A stretch of DNA of 64,000 nucleotides, taken from the NCBI GenBank assembly GCA_045837725.1, contig JBEWZL010000002.1:1-64000 (forward strand), read 5' to 3'. Numbering within the stretch: position 1 is the first letter of the stretch; each line of letters begins with the position of its first letter. The notes below the pieces were generated by a model. That model was not told the DNA's origin and did not search any database. It was given only the letters and a program-made list of their open reading frames with translations. Position numbers and translations under genes: made by a program. This document shows, one piece after another, positions 1-29,600 of this stretch. Source of the DNA: Vermamoeba vermiformis. Taxonomy: Eukaryota.

Positions 1-3000
1 CGGTTCTTGTCTGTCAGGCCATTGTTGTCCATGAAGTCGTACAACATTGCTATTACATGTGATGAGCCTTTCTTGGTAGCTGCAGGTCCTTCTGAGTCAA
101 CAAAATTTTCAGGATAAATATATCCTGTAAAGTGGTCTGGAAGGCCTTCATCAACAATGCCAAAGAAGTAAGCGTTCATCCGGGATAGGTAGTGCACTTG
201 ATTAGGAGAACAGTGATAGCCCCAATAGGGGCTTACCAAGGTTGTTTTGAAGTCAAAACAGATTAGCCTTAATTTTCCATCTGCTGCTAATTGTCGTAGC
301 AATTCATGGCTCTTTCTTTCTTGGGTTGCATGTTCATAATGAGCAGCCCATTCTTGCTTAATCTTCTTCCACCTTTCTTTTTCAGCAAAGTATTTTTGTG
401 ATTTGGCAGATTTTTCTGTTTGGTTGTTCTTGAACTTGTGCCACTTCGTGGATTCATCGATGTAGTTCTGGCACATTTGGCACCAGGTTTTGGCAAATGC
501 ACCTGTAACAACTTCATCATTCCACTTCTTGTTGAAATGTTTGTACCATGAGCTGTAGTGTACTACACAATTGCAAAACTGCTTGTGTAAGTCTGAGGCT
601 GTCTCAAGGAAACGATAAAGGCCACTGTGATCAAAATTTTGTTGAGATTTGAATCCCTTTGAGCTGGTGTTGTACTTAATTCTTTTGTGCTCTACTGTAT
701 GGCTATCAGCTCTAATTTTTCTTTTTAATTTATCTACAGTGATGCTGTTATTGTTTTGTTTCTGGTTGCTTTCAAATTGTTTGCACGATGATATGTGGTT
801 CCATACATAGTCCCAATAGAGTTGATGGATTGATGTAAGATGGGGAGGGAGAACATATTTGTTTCCTTTGACTCCTTTTGCAGCAAATGGATTTGGCAAT
901 AGAGTCTTTTCTATGTGTTGATCAAGTTCAGCAATCTGTTCATTTGATAGCTGTTTAACTGATTGTCTCCAAGCTTCAGATTTTTCTTGACATGGTTTTT
1001 TTGGAGATGTAGCTGAGTTGATCCTGCCAGAATGCACTCCATAAACTGCCTGCCATGCTCTGGTACAGTGATTTCGAACTTTTTCAAACTTGAAGACTCC
1101 ATCCTTTTTGATACAGATATTGCGAGAAACTTTAAGTGCTAAGTACCTCTGCTTTTCTTCATTAGAACTTTGTTTCCACTGCAACTGTTCTTGCATCAGT
1201 TCATCCATGAGAGTCAACATACAGTGAGCTTTGCAGCATTTTGTTGTCCAGCAAAGTAATCCCATGCCTAGATCCGTCCGAATGTTCCCAGTTGGGAAGC
1301 AAAAATCAGATTGAAGAACAAGGGTGAAGTAGCTTTGCTTCAAGGTTGGAATTTGTTGCAAAATACAATTGGGCCAGTTGTCTATATTATCCAGCATCCA
1401 ATTAATGTGAGTCTGATAGTCTGTTTGACGCTGGCCTTCTGATACAGATATAAGTATTCGTGACAGTATTGACATGCGCAGTAAGTCTATCATCGGTAAC
1501 TGCAGTAATTTTGTTAAAATCTTTTTGTTGCAGGTTGATGTGTCAAATGCACCAAGAATGTGGGCCATAGATGTTTGTGACTTGATTGGGGAAGATACTT
1601 TTTTACTTTGTTCCTCTGGTTTGCTGCTTTCAACAGGTGAAATAATTGTTGGCTTGATTGGTTTGTTTTTTGCCATTGACTTAAGGAAAGATGTCATCTG
1701 CTTTAATGCAACTTGTTCACCTTTCTTCCATTGCATAATTATGGAGCAGAACCATTTCCTTAGATAAGCTGTGTCAGCTTCTGTCCACTTGAATCTGTCC
1801 TTCTCATCAACATATGCAAAGTCCATTGCTGCTCGTAATAGAATTGGTGCACACTCAGTCCCAGATAGTTGAGCAGGAAAATTTGTCGACAATCTATATG
1901 TCCAAGTTCCAAAATCAATCCTTTTCCTTGCATGGTTTATATCAACATAGTACTCCTTCAGAAACTTGACAGCAAAATCTTTGTACTTGGGTTCATCAAA
2001 GAAACTAAATAAATTAGTAAAGAAAGTTGAGTGGTTAAACAAAGTACCTTTTTCCATCATAAAGAACTATACTGTTCGTGGTAAAGTTGAATTCAAGCAA
2101 TTGCCAGTGCTGTCCATGATAGTTGACAGGAAAGAAGATTTGATTTGCAGTGCACATCATGTCCTTGTCAAGCTTGTTCTTCATATAATTGAAATTTGGG
2201 TCTCGCCATTGAAGTACACCCAAAAACTTTGTTTCCATAAAGTACACTGGTCTTGACATCACTGAGTTGATATGGCACAGAAATGTATCAATAACAACTC
2301 CATCAACAAATTTCCCCACTTGAGCAAAGTCCAATAAATGATCTTTAAATATATAATCACTTCTGAACCGAGATAGTGTGTTTTTAAAGTAGCCATCATT
2401 GTCTGGCAATTGTTGCAATTCTTCAATATTAAACTTGATATGCTGTTCATTTTGAGGTTTGCAGGTGCAAATATAACTTGTTTCCCAGGGGCATTGCTGT
2501 TTTTGAATTGGACTTTGATCTTTCTCAGCTTCTTTTGGAATTGGGTCAGCTTCTGGAATTGCGTCAACTTTGTTGGGGAAAACTCTTTCTGGGCCAATCC
2601 TTCTTATTTTATCAATCTGCTGAATAGGAATATCAAGCAAATTGCATTCAAATAGCTCACTCAAATCCTGGGCTTCATTTAAGTTTGTTGGTTCATAATC
2701 TTCATTATTGTAGACTTCTTGCAATTTTAACAAAACAGCAGGCTTTCTTTCCTGAATTGAGAAGTCGTAATCAACCCATAGTTGTTGAACTTTTTGGCTG
2801 CCCAGCAATATTGCAGCTCTTTGTTTTGCCAATTGAATTTGGTGAACTAATTGGCCTTCAATTCCATTGGAATAGAGCTGAACAAACTGATTCCACATTG
2901 TTTGGTCCTCTGCAGACAAGTTGGTTCCATCATACTTTGAGTTGTTTCCTTTGCTCCTTTCATGTTGGAACCAATTTTGAATTCTTCTAACTGGCCAAGT

Positions 3001-3649
3001 GCCTCCCAACACAGATGATAACAGTTCACAGTCAAAGATGGTTGGATGGGATATTTTCTTGAAGAAATTGTTTAGCAAAAACCATTCCTTCTTTGAAATA
3101 TAATCCCCTTGATTACATTAGTAAAACTTTAAAGTCTGGCAATTGGTTTGCTTACTGGGACGTCTGACTGGCAAAGCTTTGGAATTAAATGACTTGAAGC
3201 CTGGATCATCGATCTTCTTTGTTAAAAATTCAGACATTGATTGCATTCTTGAAGAATGTTCAGAAGCATTGTCCTCCTCCTCAGCAATGTGGCTTTCAAC
3301 TTCCATGTTAAACTCTAATAAGATTAGAAGTTGAATGTATCTCAGGAAGCCATACCCTTTGTTGGAATAACAGGAAGCTGTAAGTCTTTCAAGCTGACAT
3401 GTTCAACACCAGTAAGGGTAGGAAGAGCAAAGCTCGTCTCTGTTGATGTCTGCAGTTCACTTTGTGCTGAATCACTAACAACTAGCTGCATTTTATCCAA
3501 GGTGCTGCTTTGTTGCAATAGCTGCTCATACCAATCATATCCTACAATTTAACTTGTTAGTCACTATTGGACATGATAATAAACATCATGATTGATCTCC
3601 ACCTTTTTGGCTTGCATTTTGAATAACTATATCTTGTTTTATTTCAATC
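1..3649 (-). mobile_element. Putative Sola-like DNA transposon gene: homeodomain + Ulp1/C48 cysteine protease + DDD-type transposase (C-terminus runs off the left edge)
   Basis: Manual translation shows that 1..2004 (-) has no stop: ...HCTRAWQAVYGV...YVLPPHLTSIHQLYWDY...WCQMC...WAAHYEHATQER...LICFDFKTTLVSP...HYLSRMNAYFFGIVDEG...YIYPE...KKGSSHVIAMLYDF, the motif order I recognise from Sola-type transposases. A 43-nt intron (2005..2047) joins it to exon 2048..~3108, which has Ulp1 motifs (IFFPVNYHGQHWQLL, LYDG; AQLSGTEC in the next exon) and a homeodomain-like segment (RRPRDYISKKEWFLLNNFF...HP...RRIQNWFQHERSK). Further in-frame exons reach ~3649; the start codon and TIRs were not located. Confidence 0.8.
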
Positions 3650-3686
3650 TGATAAAAGTAAATTAGCAGCTACACAGTAACATTAA

Positions 3687-5280
3687 TTAATTGTTGTTGT
3701 TATTATTGTTGTTTTGTTGCTGATTAGTATTGGGTTGTGATGAAGTTGGAGCAGTCTCGCGTTCGCGATTTTTCTTTGGGGGGAGAGCTGGAGTATTTTT
3801 TTTGTGGTCCTCGTACAACCCAATTACAGTTTTCATGTACGAAATTGACATGTTGGTATGTTCCTTTGTTGCAATTGATTCAGCAAACTGTTGGGTCTCT
3901 ACTTGCTTTGCAGCAACATCAAGCACCTGATAATATGTCAGTATTAGAATACTCTAATCTGACAATACCATTTTCTTAAGTCCAACTGCAAAGGTGTTTG
4001 TCATACGAATATCATCTTTAGTGCTGTTCGCTATCGAGACTGCATGATCAGCCGTCTTTGTGACACCTTTAATTTTAGCGTCTTGGATTTTAACATTCTC
4101 CTCCATGAGCGCAATTGCCTGCTCAAGCTAACGGATGGATTAGTAATGCAGCAAATCTACAATCCATTTACGTACACTTTCAATTCGACTCTCTTCATAG
4201 GTCTCAACTGAGGGCACTATGCCTTTCCAATGACCAGTTGCTTGCAATAAAACCTTTGGACCCAGAATAAACTTCTCGCCTGTCAATTCAAGAGGCTTTA
4301 CATTAGGCCATTCATCATTGATTCCACCCTCAAGTGCAAATTGTCGGACATAAGGCCAAACGGAAGCAAGTGCAAATTGGAAATCCCATTTTGGCTTGTC
4401 CACCACATCAGGTGCAAAATACGACATATTGATGGCAGTTCGAATCGCCCAGCTATTCATGGCTCGTTTGTTTGATGCGTGTGCGTAGCCGGCCATGCGC
4501 AGCAAATACACAACAAATGGACTACAAACAAATATTAGATAATTGAAATTACAAAAATCTACATACCCTACTCTTTTCTCCAGCCGTTTTAACTGCTCCA
4601 ACTCCGAGGTCAAGTACTTGATTCGTACCTCATCGCGCTTGTCATTCTGTGTACCAACAATTGTTAGTACACTATTTATTAAAAATGCATATCTTATACA
4701 AGAAAAAACTCCATCACGGAGTGCAATTATATATCTCCATCACGAAGAATCTAATTCAATAAAATCCTCATCGCGAGAATAAGCAATTCCCCATCACGGA
4801 GATGACGCGCAAAGCGCTCCTCATCACGAGGAACTGCGACACATGCTGATAGTGTCTCTCCATCACGGAGACCATGAACAAATGATGGACATAATTGATT
4901 GAACGTTGTTGAATTCTCCATCACGGAGATGACGCGCAAAGCGCTCCTCATCACGAGGAAATTGCCAAAGGCTCCCCATCACGAGGAACTTAAACAATAT
5001 GACTATCTGCTAAAATACACTTACGCGGTTGTTTTTCTTTTGAACATCTAATAATAGAGTGGATCAGTGACTCTGAACATGAATTCATTGATTAAAGACT
5101 TACTATCAAACTTCTTATTGCTTTTTCCTGCAAAACAATAGTATTAGTAATGTACGATGAGTGCGATTGCAAGCAGTGCTCTTTGAGCTGCTGCGGCTAT
5201 GTTAGTAATTGACGGACAGCTTTGCCGTTCGCACCAATTGCTCAGACTGGCAAGCTTAACCTTCCCACCAAACGGGAAGC
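3687..5280 (-). CDS. Multi-exon hypothetical protein directly upstream of the transposase gene (probable element ORF1), ending in poly-Q/N
   Basis: ORFs 4140..4613 and 3687..3926 join in frame through ~42-nt GT-AG introns (ESVR|LEQAIALMEE...KKM|VLDVAAKQ). Small upstream exons (5025-5047, 5104-5128, ~5155-5196, ~5235-5280) splice in frame across a 378-nt intron at 4647..5024. The 5' end is uncertain and no family was recognised. Confidence 0.5.
4709..4990. repeat. Array of ~9 copies of a CATC(A/G)CG-core motif (consensus CTCCATCACGGAG / CCTCATCACGAGG)
   Basis: Copies start near 4709, 4735, 4766, 4790, 4818, 4858, 4916, 4946 and 4974. A ~45-bp block (ccatcacggagatgacgcgcaaagcgctcctcatcacgaggaa) occurs at both ~4791 and ~4918. 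Confidence 0.85.
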
Positions 5281-5888
5281 TATTCCGTCAATTACTAAAG
5301 TAATCAGAGAGGGCAAAAGTACCCCTCCGACCCACGGCGCTGCCGCCGATCTGCTAGCAGACAGTAATTTGCAAAAAAAAATCAGAAAAATGAGTTTTGC
5401 AGCAAAACAGTGATAAATAAATTATTCTAACTTATATTAAGCAGTGGATTAATTATTGGTGGTGTTTTTAATTTTCACATCCAGATGTGAATTCGAGTGA
5501 ACTTACGGGGTTTATGAAATGGGCTATTCTTCTCCATTTTTCAATATCAATGCCCTATTGTATCTACAAACACAATAACCTGTGTGTATCCCAACAATTC
5601 AATAAATTAACTAATGACAAATTTTGGCAATGTCTCGATTAACTACCAACCCAACCCAAACAGTCATATATGATCATATCAATGGTTAAACTGTATTTAT
5701 TAACTATATACAGGCTCCGTTGGAGTTTTAGCGTAAAACGTCTTATACATAAAAGGTAAAACATTAAAATTGGTCATTATTAATTAGCGACTGAATCGCG
5801 ACCCACGATTCATCACACGAGGAAAATCATCATTACTTTTCAATAACATGTGATATCTTTACTATTGCGGTGTAAGCTCTGTTACAAA

Positions 5889-23658: not shown

Positions 23659-26600
23659 TTAAACCTTGCCCAGAACTAATGCGAGCAAAGCCATGCGAAT
23701 GTACATTCCGTTCTCCATTTGTCGGAAATAAGCTGCTCGTGGATCGCTGTCTACCAAAGTTGAAATTTCATCTACACGTGGCAAGGGGTGCATGACAGCC
23801 ATAGTCTCTTTCGCCGAAGTCAACACTTCAGGCGTGATAATGTACGAGCCCTTGACTTTCTCGTACTCCTCGGCCGAGGCAAATCGTTCTTTTTGAATGC
23901 GAGTCACGTAGAGCACGTCAGTGTTGGCCAACACGGGCTCCAATGAATCGTATTCTTTTTGCACTACGCCCTTGGCATTCAATTCTTCAATCAAGTGGCG
24001 GGGCATGGCCAAGCTAGGAGGGCTGACGTAGTTCAAGTTGATGCCGCTGTAGAGGCTCAACAACTTCACCAATGAGTGGACGGTGCGACCGTGCTTCAAG
24101 TCACCGACGAGCGTGACGTTGATGTTGTTGACGGTGCCCAATTCTTCACGAATAGTGAACACGTCCAGCAAGGCTTGAGTGGGGTGCTCGCCAATACCGT
24201 CACCAGCGTTGATAACGGGCAAGCTGGAGTGTTTGGCAGCAGTGGCGGCGCTGCCTTCAACAGGGTGGCGCAAGACAATCACATCGCTGTAGCACTCGAG
24301 GGTCTTGATCGTGTCAACAAGTGTCTCGCCCTTTTGAGTCGAAGAAGTGCTCTCGTTGAACGGCACAACTGAACCACCGAGTCTGACCATGGCAGCGTAG
24401 AAAGAGGATGAAGTACGAGTTGAAGGCTCGAAGAACACGTTGGCGAGGACCTTGCCCTTGAGCAACTCAAGAGAGCCCATTCGCTTGACCATGGTGCGCA
24501 TGTCCGTGGCAACGGTGAACAAGAAGTGCAAATCAGAGCGTGAGAACTGTGACACACTGAGAATAGACTTGCCGCGCAACTTGCTCAAACCTTGCTCATC
24601 CTTGAGCAATGGTGCCAAGAGAGTAGGCTCGGGAACAACGTTGGCTGCAACGATTGCTTGCTCGGATTTCTTGGCCTTCTTGGCAGGCGAGGAAGGTACG
24701 ACAGCAACTTCGGCGACCTTCGGGGCAGGAACAACAACTGGGGCCTCAACAACAGGCACGCCAGTAACGTTGGATTCTTCAGGCATAGTGCGGTAGTGAG
24801 CAACATTTTGACCGTAACCCATGGGCACCAAGATCTTGCCGTCTTGGTAAGCAACTTTGCCACGCAAAACGACTTGTCTGACACGGCCCTTGACTTCCAT
24901 GCCAGCGAAGGGCGTCCATTGACACTTGCTGAATGGCATGGCTGCAGGAATGGTCCAGGTCTCGTCCAAATCGACTTCAATGTAAGTGTCAGGTTGCTCA
25001 GGCAAGTTGAAGATTCTTCGAGGGTTGGTGGACATCTTGGCAATGACGTCTTCAAGAGTGATCTTGCCTTGGTGGACGGCAGTCAACATAAGTGTCAAAG
25101 AAGTCTCCAAGCCAGGGAAGCCAGGAGGAGGCTGATCGCTGTCCTTCTCGTACAAGCAATGAGGTGCGTGATCAGTAGAAATGACGTCAATCACGTCCAT
25201 GTTGGCCCACAAGTAGTCGACATCAGATTGGGGTGACAAACGAGGTCTGACTTCGCAACGACCGTGACCCAACTTCTCAAGGTCTTCAGTGCTCATGAAC
25301 AAATGGTGAGGGCAAACTTCGCAAGTGACTTTAACACCGCGCTCCTTGGCCTTCTTGATAACTGCCAACTCTTCAGCCAATGACACGTGGCAGACGTGAA
25401 CTTGTCTGTCGTACAAGTGAGCCATCAACAAAGCAGCAGCCATGTTTCTCTTCTCGGCGTGGACGAAGAGAGGCATGTGAGCTGGCCAATGCTTGAAGTG
25501 CTCAGCCCAATCGTTCAAACTGTCCAACTTGAGAGTAGTGAAGGTAGGATCGAGGTACATCTTGAGTGCGAAAGCATTCTTGCTCAATCCAGCAACAACT
25601 TGAGCGTTGCCAATAGCAGCACCCAAGAAGATGCCGTAGTCGCAGCGAGCCTTCTCAGCAGCAATTCTGCTAACCATTTGGAAGGACTTGGCGTCGATGA
25701 TCGAAGGCTTAGTGTTGGGCATAGCACAAACGATCGTGACACCGCCGGCGAGAGCAGCGCAAGTACCGCTGTCCCAGTCCTCTTTGTGGTTGTCTCCAGG
25801 TTCGCGCAAGTGGACGTGAACATCGACAAGGCCGGGCAGGAGTACGATGTTACCACCACGACGAGCGTCGAGAAGAGGATCGACAGGAATGTTAGCAGGA
25901 ACATAGGTCAATGCGTCAACGAACAACTTGGCGACCTTAATGTCGGTGATAACAGGGATGCCCAAATCAATTGCCATACGACGGAGCTTGTAGCCCTTGG
26001 ACATGAAGTGAGAGGGACGAATGAATCTGTTCTTGCTCGGGATAATGATGCAAAGGTCAATGACACCACTTTGAAGAGCGTGGTGAATGGATCGTTCGGC
26101 GTTTTCACTGCCAGTCTCGCTGGGCCAGTACAAAGACTTGACGGGGATGTCGTGTTCAGCAAAGTAGTCAGCAGAGCCAGGAGTACCGAAGATAGTGTAG
26201 CCCATGTCAACGAGCTTGCGAGCAAAAGGCAAGAACTCGCCCTTCTCTTTGAAGGCACCAACAGAAATGAGAGCGTTCTTCTTCTTTGGCATCTTGAAGC
26301 CAGAGGACAAGAAGCCCTTCAAGAAGGCGCTGTACTTGTTCTCGCCAAGGCAAGCGACTTCACCAGTGGAAGCCATTTCGACACCCAAAACTGGATCAGC
26401 TCCTTGCAAACGAGAGAAGGAGAAAGTAGGAACTTTAACACCAACGTAGTTGTACTTGGAGGGGTCAATAGTGACAGGCTGGCAAGGAATGCCGAGGATG
26501 ACCTTCGAGGCCAAGACAGCAAAGTCAACACCGAGGACCTTGGAGACGAACGGGAAGCTACGAGAGCTACGCAAGTTGCATTCGATGACCTTAATCTCGT

Positions 26601-29600
26601 TGTCCTTGGCAATGAACTGAATATTCAAAGGACCAGAGACGTTCAAGCTGCGAACAATCTTTTCGGTGGCAGCCTCAATTTTGCTGATAGTAATAGGATC
26701 CAAGTCTTGAGCAGGCAACATCAAAGTAGCGTCACCAGAGTGAACACCAGCATTTTCAACGTGCTCTGAGATGGCTCTAACCAAGACACGACCGTTCTGG
26801 GCAACAGCGTCTACATCGACCTCCTTGGCGTACATGATGAACTTGGAAATGACGACAGGGTAGTCCTTAGAGACTGAGGTAGCTTCGCTGAGATAGGCTT
26901 CCAAGTCGGTGGGAGTGTGCACGACGTTCATACCGGCACCAGATAAGACGAATGATGGGCGAACCAAGCAAGGGTATCCAACGCTCTCGCAGAAGGCCTT
27001 GGTCTCTTCAATGGCACGGCACTCTTTCCAGCGAGGTTGATCAACACCCAAAGTATCCAACAAACGGGAGAACTTGTAACGGTTCTCAGCAGAGTCGATG
27101 CTTTCAGGTGAAGTACCCAAGATGTTGAAGTGAGCACGGTGAAGAGCCATAGCAACGTTGTTAGGCATTTGACCACCCATAGAAACGATGACACCGAGAG
27201 GGTTCTCGCGTTCGTAGATATCAGCAATGCGTTCGAAGGTAAGTTCTTCGAAGAATAGCTTGTCGCACTCGTCGTAGTCGGTACTGACAGTCTCAGGGTT
27301 GTAGTTGATCATGATGGTCTTGTGGCCCAACTTGCTGGCAGTGTGAGTGGCACTGACGGCGCACCAATCGAACTCGACACTGCTACCGATGCAGTAAGCA
27401 CCAGAGCCCAAAATGATAACGGAGCCCTTTCCTTGTTCAATGTCGTCTTCAGAAGCGTTGTAGGTCATGTATAGGTAGTTGTTGTGAGCAGGGAACTCTG
27501 CAGCAACAGTATCGACTTGCTTCACGAAGGGCACGATGGAGTGCTGCTTTCTGAAGTCTCTGATAACAGTCTCAGTGCTGTGCATGCACTTGGCGATGGC
27601 CTTGTCGGAGAAACCCAATCTCTTGGCTTGCAACAAGACTTGAGGAGTCAAATCAGTAGGTCTGATCTTGCGCATGCTAGTCTCCAAGTCGCTGATGCGC
27701 TTCAATTTGTACAAGAACCACTTGTCAATGTTGGTCAACGAGTGAATCTTATCGACAGTCATGCCTTGCTTCAGAGCCTCGGCGATGACAAAAATTCTGT
27801 CGTACGAAGCATTGACGAGGTTGTGCTCGAGGTCCTTGGGAGTAGAAACACCGCTCATGAATCCCAATGAAGCATCATTGACCATGCGGCAAGCTTTTTG
27901 AATAGTTTCTTCGAAGTTTCTGCCAATAGCCATGACTTCTCCGACTGATTTCATAGCAGTGCCGATAGTCTTGTTGACGTGCTCGAACTTCTTCAAGTCC
28001 CATCGAGGCACTTTAACGACGCAGTAATCCAAGCTAGGCTCGAACATAGTGGTAGTAGCACCTTGAGTGACCTTGTTCTTCAAGTCCAACAAGCTGTAGC
28101 CGAGCGACAACTTGGCTGCAACAAAGGCGAGAGGATAGCCAGTAGCCTTGCTAGCCATAGCTGAGCTGCGAGACAAACGAGCATTGACTTCGATGATGAA
28201 GTATTCCTCAGAGTTAGGGTTGAGTGCGTATTGAATGTTGCACTCTCCGACAACACCCAAGTGGCGCACGACCTTGATGGCGCACTTGCGGAGCATGTGG
28301 TACTCTTGATCGGTCAAAGTTTGACTGGGAGCCACGACGATAGATTCACCAGTGTGAATGCCCAAAGGATCGAAGTTCTCCATGTTGCAAACAGTGATGC
28401 AGTTGTCAAAAGCGTCACGAACAACTTCGTACTCGATTTCCTTCCAGCCCTTGAGTGAACGCTCAATGAGGACTTGGTTAGAGGAGGCCAAGCTGACACG
28501 AACAGCAGCTTCCAATTCCTCCTTGTTGTTAGCAAAGCCCGAGCCAAGACCGCCCAAAGCGAAAGCTGAGCGAAGAATGACAGGGTAGCCGATTTTCTGC
28601 GTCGGGTTAATGTTGTTTAATGGATTTACCTTATTGTGTTCTTACCTCAGCAGCGGCAATAGCGTCCTGGACGTTGGTGACTGCAGCACTGGGAGCGACG
28701 TACTCGCCAATCTCCTTGACGGCATTAGCGAACAACTCGCGATCTTCAGTGGTAATAATGGTGTCGACTGGAGTACCCAAGACCTTCACTCCGTAGTTGG
28801 CGAGAGTGCCAGACTTGTACAAAGAGACACCGCAGTTCAAAGCAGTTTGACCACCGAACTGAAGCAAGATGCCGTCGGGCTTTTCGATCTCGATGACCTT
28901 CGTTACAAACTCCGGAGTGATCGGCAAGAAGTAGACACGATCAGCCAAGCCAGGAGTAGTTTGGACGGTGGCAATGTTGGGGTTGATCAAAATAGTGCGA
29001 ATGCCTTCTTCTTTCATGGCTTTGATGGCCTGTGAACCAGAGTAATCGAACTCTCCGGCTTGACCAATGGACAAACCACCAGAGCCCAACAAAAGAACCT
29101 TGGTGACTGACTCGCGCTTGGTCGGAGCATTAGGGAACTTCTTGTTGAGCGGGTGATCGAACTTTTGGCCGCGAACGAGCGACAAGAAGTAATCGAACAA
29201 GTACTCGGTCTCGACTGGTCCACCCTTGGCCTCAGGATGGAATTGCACGCTGAAGAACGGCTTAGTGGTGTGGTAGATGCCTTCGTTCGTCTTGTCGTTG
29301 GCATTGTAAAAGTATTGTTTCCATTGAGAAGGTAAAGTAGCGACGTCAATGGCGTAACCGTGATTTTGCATGGTCAAGTGGCATCGACCAGAGAATTGCT
29401 CGTCGACACAAGGTTGATTGTGACCTCTGTTACCGAACTTCAATTTGTAAGTCTTCGCGCCTGCCGCCAATCCCAACAATTGATTGCCCAGACAAATACC
29501 AAAAATGGGCTTGGGAGTAGGGTTGGCTTCTTCTTTTTCGAGCAATCGCTATAATCCGTGTTAATACTATTGCAATTATAGCAAGCTTATTATATTGAGC

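Follow-up and report, generated by a model that had tools for sequence, protein, structure and literature searches.

The stretch of DNA considered here, hereafter the window, comprises 64,000 nucleotides of Vermamoeba vermiformis (assembly GCA_045837725.1, contig JBEWZL010000002.1, positions 1 to 64,000), and the gene under study occupies the minus strand at its very beginning, where it is cut by the window edge. It is predicted to encode, in one spliced frame, a homeodomain-like module, a SUMO protease of the Ulp1/SENP type (family C48) and the start of an Asp-Asp-Asp (DDD) transposase core; this combination is an unusual, though not unprecedented, kind of mobile-element protein. The minus strand carries three stop-free frames in this region, at 3..2066 (688 codons, running off the start of the window), 2035..3117 (360 codons) and 3118..3402; removal of two short GT-AG introns joins exons 3306..3156, 3107..2048 and 2004..1 into a model of 1071 codons with 0 stops, which runs past position 1. 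The features of the gene are the following, residues being numbered along the spliced model:

3315..3491, minus strand: possible extra 5' exon, from an ATG at 3491 to 3356, followed by a 41-nt intron at 3355..3315 (GTATGG...CTAAT...TAG) and in frame with the ATG at 3306; read by eye, a candidate on splice signals and frame alone
3156..3306, minus strand: exon 1, starting with the ATG at 3306; it encodes an acidic N-terminus and the greater part of the homeodomain's basic arm; placed by ATG position and frame
3108..3155, minus strand: intron A, 48 nt, GTAAGC...TACTAAT...AG
2944..3165, minus strand: homeodomain-like module, residues ~48-105, spanning intron A
2048..3107, minus strand: exon 2, encoding the homeodomain-like module, a helical linker that is conserved and includes a cluster of Cys, and the N-terminal half of C48 (His384, Asp401)
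1716..2406, minus strand: Ulp1/SENP-type C48 protease, residues ~285-500, split by intron B
2109..2107, 2058..2056, 1871..1869 and 1853..1851, minus strand: C48 catalytic codons for His384, Asp401, Gln449 and Cys455, respectively
2005..2047, minus strand: intron B, 43 nt, interrupting the protease domain, GTACTT...TACTAAT...TAG
1..2004, minus strand: exon 3, truncated at the window edge, encoding the C-terminal half of C48, the middle region, the N-terminal region of the transposase and the start of its catalytic core
1028..1718, minus strand: middle region conserved in the family, aligned in P0001-P0005, P0007 and P0008
468..578, minus strand: Cys/His cluster (CxC..H...CxxC), a putative zinc module upstream of the core, of low confidence in the model of P0006
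1..263, minus strand: start of the RNase H-like catalytic core, with the first catalytic Asp and the FGIVDE and KKG motifs

As far as the continuity of the polypeptide is concerned, intron B is the sole splice needed to join the pieces: one frame holds the homeodomain-like module together with the first half of C48, and a second one, a single 668-codon exon, holds the other half of C48 and the start of the transposase. With the spliced model as blastp query, the junction of intron B is crossed in single alignments by P0004, P0005, P0008, P0015 and P0001 (handles of this type designate relatives of the gene); a tblastn search with P0004 gives two pieces separated by 67 nt for 8 residues, which leaves the 43 nt of intron B. 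Exon 2 is one open frame, and P0035 (55% identical) covers 98% of the query 2380-3117 (exon 2 residues 1-246), the C-terminal part of the exon being aligned with P0004 (E=2e-14); because the frame of P0035 stops at the position of intron B as well, this intron is old. Both introns display a GT start, a TACTAAT branch-like site and an AG end; in the case of intron A, splice signals and frame are the whole of the support, the frame being kept once the intron is removed and an in-frame stop being encountered just inside it upon read-through. Exon 1 finds no homolog support, and three RNA runs carrying the same species label have 0 reads on 1..4800, neighbouring gene included, and hence provide no test of the junctions. 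The relatives of the frame, 32-75% identical to it with E-values down to 1e-257, represent a match beyond chance; moreover, in a source-like DNA run the coding variants lie at third codon positions (4 of 4) and 3 of them are silent, so that the frame is kept. The presence of the homeodomain-like module, C48 and the N-terminal part of the transposase in one predicted polypeptide is thus a supported reading of the sequence. A preliminary description of this DNA had proposed a minus-strand stop-free frame of more than 660 codons, which is borne out by the 688-codon frame; of the two introns it had placed, intron B is exact and intron A one base off, and its claim of a single polypeptide agrees with the 1071-codon spliced frame and with the five relatives that cross the junction of intron B.

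Pfam does not recognize C48 (PF02902) at E<=1 in the exons of the window taken singly, because intron B splits the domain. In the relatives P0004, P0005, P0007, P0008 and P0015, the same family scores 40-48.7 bits (gathering cut-off 20.7), and a C48 profile built from five relatives retrieves SENP/Ulp1 chains in 12 of 12 rows of a search against the PDB, from SENP5 (6e-13, the best) to yeast Ulp1 (0.004), with SENP1 and SENP2 also among the chains aligned. His384, Asp401, Gln449 and Cys455, when aligned through the relatives, fall on the catalytic columns of SENP/Ulp1, which is in keeping with the H-D-(Q)-C set read earlier from this DNA. Judging from these alignments, the domain split by intron B is a real Ulp1/SENP (C48) protease, whose predicted catalytic set His-Asp-Gln-Cys is complete. 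Self-cleavage of the polypeptide by this protease at Gly-Gly is unlikely, there being 1 GG in 1071 residues, located inside the homeodomain. The middle region that follows the protease has no Pfam match.

The N-terminal module had been described as a homeodomain; the helix-3 motif and the basic arm are indeed present. For the Pfam family Homeodomain (PF00046; E=1.5e-4), exon 2 alone reaches 22.0 bits and so falls just short of the cut-off (22.9), the N-terminal arm lying in the other exon and not being included in this score, and the position of Asn51 is occupied by His. In other words, the W, F and R of the helix-3 signature W48-F49-x-N51-x-R53 are found, and His replaces Asn51 both in the window and in P0035, which scores 16.3 bits for PF00046; the same His is found at position 51 in the Hox-like domain of ceramide synthase. 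A search of the PDB returned homeodomain chains in 29 of 32 rows (best DUX4, E=1.1e-4), and a three-sequence profile returned homeodomains in 7 of 7 rows, the best being the Hox-like domain of ceramide synthase 5 (E=0.048). Given that Asn51 is absent and that the best profile match is a ceramide synthase Hox-like domain, DNA binding is uncertain, and the module is best called homeodomain-like, its binding to DNA being unproven. The module is near-identical in the window and in P0035, despite the fact that the two proteins are 55-59% identical overall, and it is therefore under constraint. The AlphaFold model of exon 2 is unusable (predicted local distance difference test, pLDDT, 35.6); it shows three helices at residues 9-55. 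The linker between this module and the protease carries a Cys cluster, C-x7-C-x-C followed by His (2502-2545, spliced residues 255-266), which is kept in P0035 and may be a small zinc knuckle.

The C-terminal region of the model is best understood through the relatives. The family is very small: out of 1.84 billion representatives, searched exhaustively with HMMER, only 15 proteins match at E<=0.001, and a second search, with P0006 as the query, found 21. Among 19 relatives scanned, 10 exceed the cut-off for the domain DUF7869 (PF25273), with 63.9-82.6 bits (cut-off 26) in relatives aligned to the last 120-650 residues of the window; the window itself has no match to DUF7869, its frame ending ~15 residues before the second Asp. 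P0020, which is 75% identical and the closest relative at the cut end, extends into the other two Asp motifs as well. In an alignment of 26 sequences, the near-invariant positions are, in P0006 numbering, H123, D152, P160, F182, G183, E199, K211, D245, N246, N251, K252, F276, H281, K283, F284, D287 and F290; the Asp triad D152, D245 and D287 is absent in 1-2 rows of the 26 and kept in every close relative spanning it. D152 of P0006 aligns with the Asp of the FDF motif of the window (codon 254..252, minus strand), the second and third Asp lying beyond the window. The series of motifs pointed out in the preliminary description is likewise found, namely CxxC (spliced residues 911-916), H..A..ER (959-967), the Asp of FDF (985-989), FFGIVDEG (1017-1024) and KKG (1047-1054). 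A feature that it had not mentioned is that relatives end in tandem chromodomains: two stretches are above cut-off (PF00385) in P0006, P0009, P0016, P0017 and P0018, and precomputed for P0021, so that they occur in six relatives, the corresponding region of this copy being off the window. A peculiar case is that of the distant relative P0011 (a JGI record, ~23-26% identity), which carries DUF7869 by Pfam and a C-terminal stretch that is aligned with the chromodomains of the relatives and gives no Chromo match; the very end of the protein, placed after the transposase, resembles the Gln...Cys part of C48 without the His/Asp part, and this C48-like end could be due to chance, to a permuted arrangement or to a gene-call artefact.

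The fold of the core was approached with the AlphaFold model of P0006 (pLDDT 80.2, predicted template modelling score 0.67), in which D152 sits on the first core strand (E147-159), D245 ends the fourth strand (E239-245) and D287 starts a helix (H285-297). Comparison by VIA-align with 48,161 chains gave Z-scores of 9.7 for the integrase of simian immunodeficiency virus (SIV), 9.5 for that of prototype foamy virus (PFV), 9.4 for Metnase (168 aligned), 9.2 for Mos1 and 9.0 for IstA, with the integrase of mouse mammary tumour virus (MMTV) also among the top rows (Z 9.7-9.0); over residues 134-321 of P0006, Z-scores to integrases, Metnase, Mos1 and IstA range from 9.7 to 8.5, and the best 15 rows are all integrases or transposases covering the triad region. 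The last 50 residues of P0006 match the chromodomains of Chp1, HP1 and CHD1 (Z 8.5-7.8, root-mean-square deviation 1.0-1.7), and residues 434-491 match that of Polycomb. Sequence searches for this region were less informative: exon 3 has 0 sequence matches in the PDB, the profile of the catalytic-core alignment (A1) finds 4 unrelated PDB rows (E>=0.18), NCBIfam offers nothing relevant, and an Atlas search with exon 3 has a best score of 0.76, to be taken as a lead only. Owing to the consistency of the VIA-align rows and to the placement of the triad, a DDD transposase/integrase core is the best reading, and it is supported, through the relatives, that the C-terminal domain would be the RNase H-like DDD core of the DUF7869 family; the transposase proposed in the preliminary description is upheld in that DUF7869, the Asp-Asp-Asp triad and the RNase H-like fold are all found in relatives.

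Taken as a whole, the locus is probably a spliced gene, present here in its 5' three quarters, whose product is a large multi-domain transposase; the gene would belong to a DNA transposon or have arisen from one very recently. From the N- to the C-terminus, the protein would consist of a divergent homeodomain-like module, a linker with a Cys cluster, a complete C48 domain, a family-specific middle region, a Cys/His cluster and the DDD core (DUF7869); judging from the relatives, ~315 more residues, with the other two Asp and two chromodomains, would follow beyond the window edge. As to the mechanism, the DDD core would cut and join DNA in the fashion of integrases and mariner, DNA would be bound by the ancestral N-terminal region and/or by the added homeodomain, the chromodomains would tether the enzyme to methylated histone tails, and the protease would strip SUMO (or a relative) from chromatin proteins, which may allow the element to act in, or to escape from, silenced chromatin; here we infer the off-window part of this copy, its mobility and every functional role. 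A more specific proposal, which is put forward tentatively and is more doubtful than not, is that of an undescribed lineage of DDD transposons of free-living protists, built on a DUF7869 core, in which a single polypeptide would read chromatin marks by means of tandem chromodomains, strip SUMO with a complete Ulp1 site and recognise DNA by an acquired homeodomain. If this were true, we would be dealing with a self-contained 'chromatin-aware' transposase targeting or disarming silenced chromatin, and DUF7869, which is widespread in animals, would receive its first functional assignment, to a transposase superfamily that would be either new or a branch of Sola.

Several observations weigh against the transposase interpretation and have to be considered together. 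The window's own exons remain below every Pfam cut-off, and for this copy the window does not reach as far as the second and third Asp, the chromodomains or the stop codon. A Foldseek search of the PDB with the model of P0006 found no match at E<=0.001, its weak rows being all RNase H-like proteins, and VIA Z-scores of 9-10 are modestly above the background of 7-8 stated for the tool. The N-terminal module, for its part, is without Asn51 and has a ceramide synthase Hox-like domain as its best profile match. Finally, no second copy lies within the 64-kb window, no terminal inverted repeats or target-site duplication were seen (one end of the element being off the window), and sequencing depth over 871..3554 is 35.8 vs 39.6 in the flank (contigs of the DNA run best matching the locus); the locus looks single-copy because its depth equals that of the flank.

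These last observations lead to the first of the alternatives, according to which an ex-transposase fusion, now immobile, has been kept single-copy as a domesticated host gene, with a role as a chromatin or DNA-processing factor. Besides the single-copy-like depth and the lack of another copy in the window, such a gene would account for the old introns, whose position is common to a 55-67% identical relative, for allelic variants that are mostly silent, and for the short distance to the upstream gene (~200 bp, read by eye); furthermore, a homeodomain, a deSUMOylase and chromodomains would suit a chromatin regulator. On the other hand, G+C content at third codon positions (GC3) is 0.36-0.39 in the gene and 0.44-0.61 in 10 of the 11 other long frames of the window, that is, unlike most of its host genes, a low value that fits a foreign or weakly expressed gene; the Asp triad is near-invariant in the 26-row alignment and kept in all close relatives spanning it; animal DUF7869 clusters are multi-member; and the relatives make up several deeply diverged lineages, occurring as singletons or small fragment clusters on short contigs of many assemblies. 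DNA of relatives was found in none of the metagenome contigs (alignment A2; P0011), viral contigs (A1) or prokaryote genomes (A2) searched. Between an autonomous low-copy element and a domesticated derivative, the element is favoured, and we regard domestication as unlikely, if by no means negligible.

A second alternative would make the C-terminal domain an RNase H-like nuclease that serves some purpose other than transposition, DUF7869 not being a transposase family at all; this would be consistent with the fact that no published or experimental characterisation of DUF7869 was found, that solved transposases show no sequence match and that structural Z-scores are moderate. It is nevertheless highly improbable, as all 15 best VIA-align rows are integrases or transposases over the triad region, the DDD triad and its spacing fit, C48 and chromodomains are accessory domains typical of mobile elements, and the animal DUF7869 clusters are multi-copy. 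Least credible of all is the idea of two or three separate abutting genes (a homeodomain-protease and a transposase) joined by coincidentally in-frame introns, for which the lack of RNA evidence at the junctions and the splitting of relatives by gene callers (e.g., P0005/P0009 and P0035/P0003) may be invoked, but which is contradicted by the position of intron B within the protease fold itself, contiguous in relatives, by the 668-codon exon that holds both the second half of C48 and the beginning of the transposase, and by the occurrence of C48 remnants and DUF7869 in one frame in P0001 and P0002.

The transposase interpretation invites a comparison with other systems. The Sola superfamily, said to have been introduced by Bao, Jurka and Kapitonov in 2009, reportedly has a DDD triad, a large transposase, a 4-bp target-site duplication, termini specific to the family and a wide, patchy distribution among eukaryotes; neither Ulp1 nor a homeodomain or chromodomain is known to occur in it. 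The likeness to Sola seen here consists of the DDD triad only, in relatives, and the label 'Sola-type' is conjectural. In the chromovirus integrases of long terminal repeat (LTR) retrotransposons, a C-terminal chromodomain is carried by a DDE-type enzyme and is thought to direct integration to marked chromatin; in contrast to these enzymes of LTR retrotransposons, the tandem chromodomains considered here, seen in relatives only, belong to a DNA-transposase-like protein. The nearest solved folds, those of Mos1/Metnase and of retroviral integrases, likewise have a compact RNase H core that lacks an insertion domain, with ~40 residues from the second acidic residue to the third, but they show no detectable sequence similarity and carry other DNA-binding and accessory domains. 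Animal DUF7869 (PF25273) proteins, among them one from the sea urchin Diadema antillarum, as yet uncharacterized, and those of arthropod clusters, share the same core motifs (FD, FG, DN..QNKN, GHTKF..D) at 17-27% identity; for the animal proteins listed, precomputed Pfam annotation shows neither C48 nor a homeodomain or chromodomain, whereas the clade of the window adds all three.

Turning to the literature, the accessible portions of PMC5751038, PMC3985635, PMC11071193, PMC11662393 and the preprint 10.1101/2021.09.26.461848 contain Sola by name only. In the hAT/P/MuDR/Kolobok/Dada group, as stated in PMC9587614, the core is marked by a C/DxxH motif and by a long insertion that separates the second Asp from the third acidic residue; a core of this type is ruled out here, D245 and D287 being only 42 residues apart and the C/DxxH motif being absent. 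The capture of Ulp1 by Mutator-like elements, to which the preliminary description had alluded, is documented in the excerpted text of PMC13317346, according to which plant elements of this kind (Kaonashi/KI-MULEs, Vandal VANC-Ulp1) have kept a captured Ulp1 domain and are suspected of using it to escape epigenetic silencing; in that text the Ulp1 of the plant elements is a separate accessory gene, whereas the Ulp1 domain considered here is joined to a DUF7869 transposase in one reading frame. In ~8.4 million texts searched, no published function was found for DUF7869, and in the open-access texts searched neither a DNA transposon combining Ulp1 with a chromodomain nor the combination of homeodomain, SUMO protease and transposase is described. 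Fold and triad argue that DUF7869 is a DDD transposase or integrase core, and the capture of accessory domains by transposases, known from plant Mutator-like elements, would also take place in an amoeba-like protist lineage. The fusion could offer a compact natural system in which to ask how mobile elements handle silencing that depends on SUMO and on methylated lysine 9 of histone H3 (H3K9me) or, if domesticated, a candidate chromatin factor of transposon origin.

As for the remaining observations on the locus, the contigs of the best DNA run show two-state variants at 273, 297, 324, 663 and 3555, which may reflect two haplotypes or strains, and one-base gaps at 716 and 3604, both in T runs, look like assembly noise. 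The neighbouring gene (3687-5536, minus strand) consists of many very small, host-like exons, as read by eye, with no Pfam match and a GC3 of 0.36; its stop, at ~3687, is ~200 bp from the possible first exon of the fusion gene, and it might be a second gene of the element. Between 4708 and 4998 (minus strand), a palindromic motif of 13 nt (TCCGTGATGGAGA / CTCGTGATGAGGA type), with 5-nt arms around ATCAC, occurs 8 times on the same strand, and only one more copy is present in the window (59025), the chance expectation being 0.39; the array appears to be intronic in the neighbouring gene and could be a regulatory array or a set of binding sites. Farther along the window, a CAD gene (carbamoyl-phosphate synthase, dihydroorotase, aspartate carbamoyltransferase) lies at 23659-29548 (minus strand) and points to a eukaryotic, probably amoebozoan, host, since its best named matches are dictyostelids and Balamuthia (67-68%), with chytrids at 65-67%; its product shares 97% identity with a JGI metagenome protein and <=70% with that of any named species.

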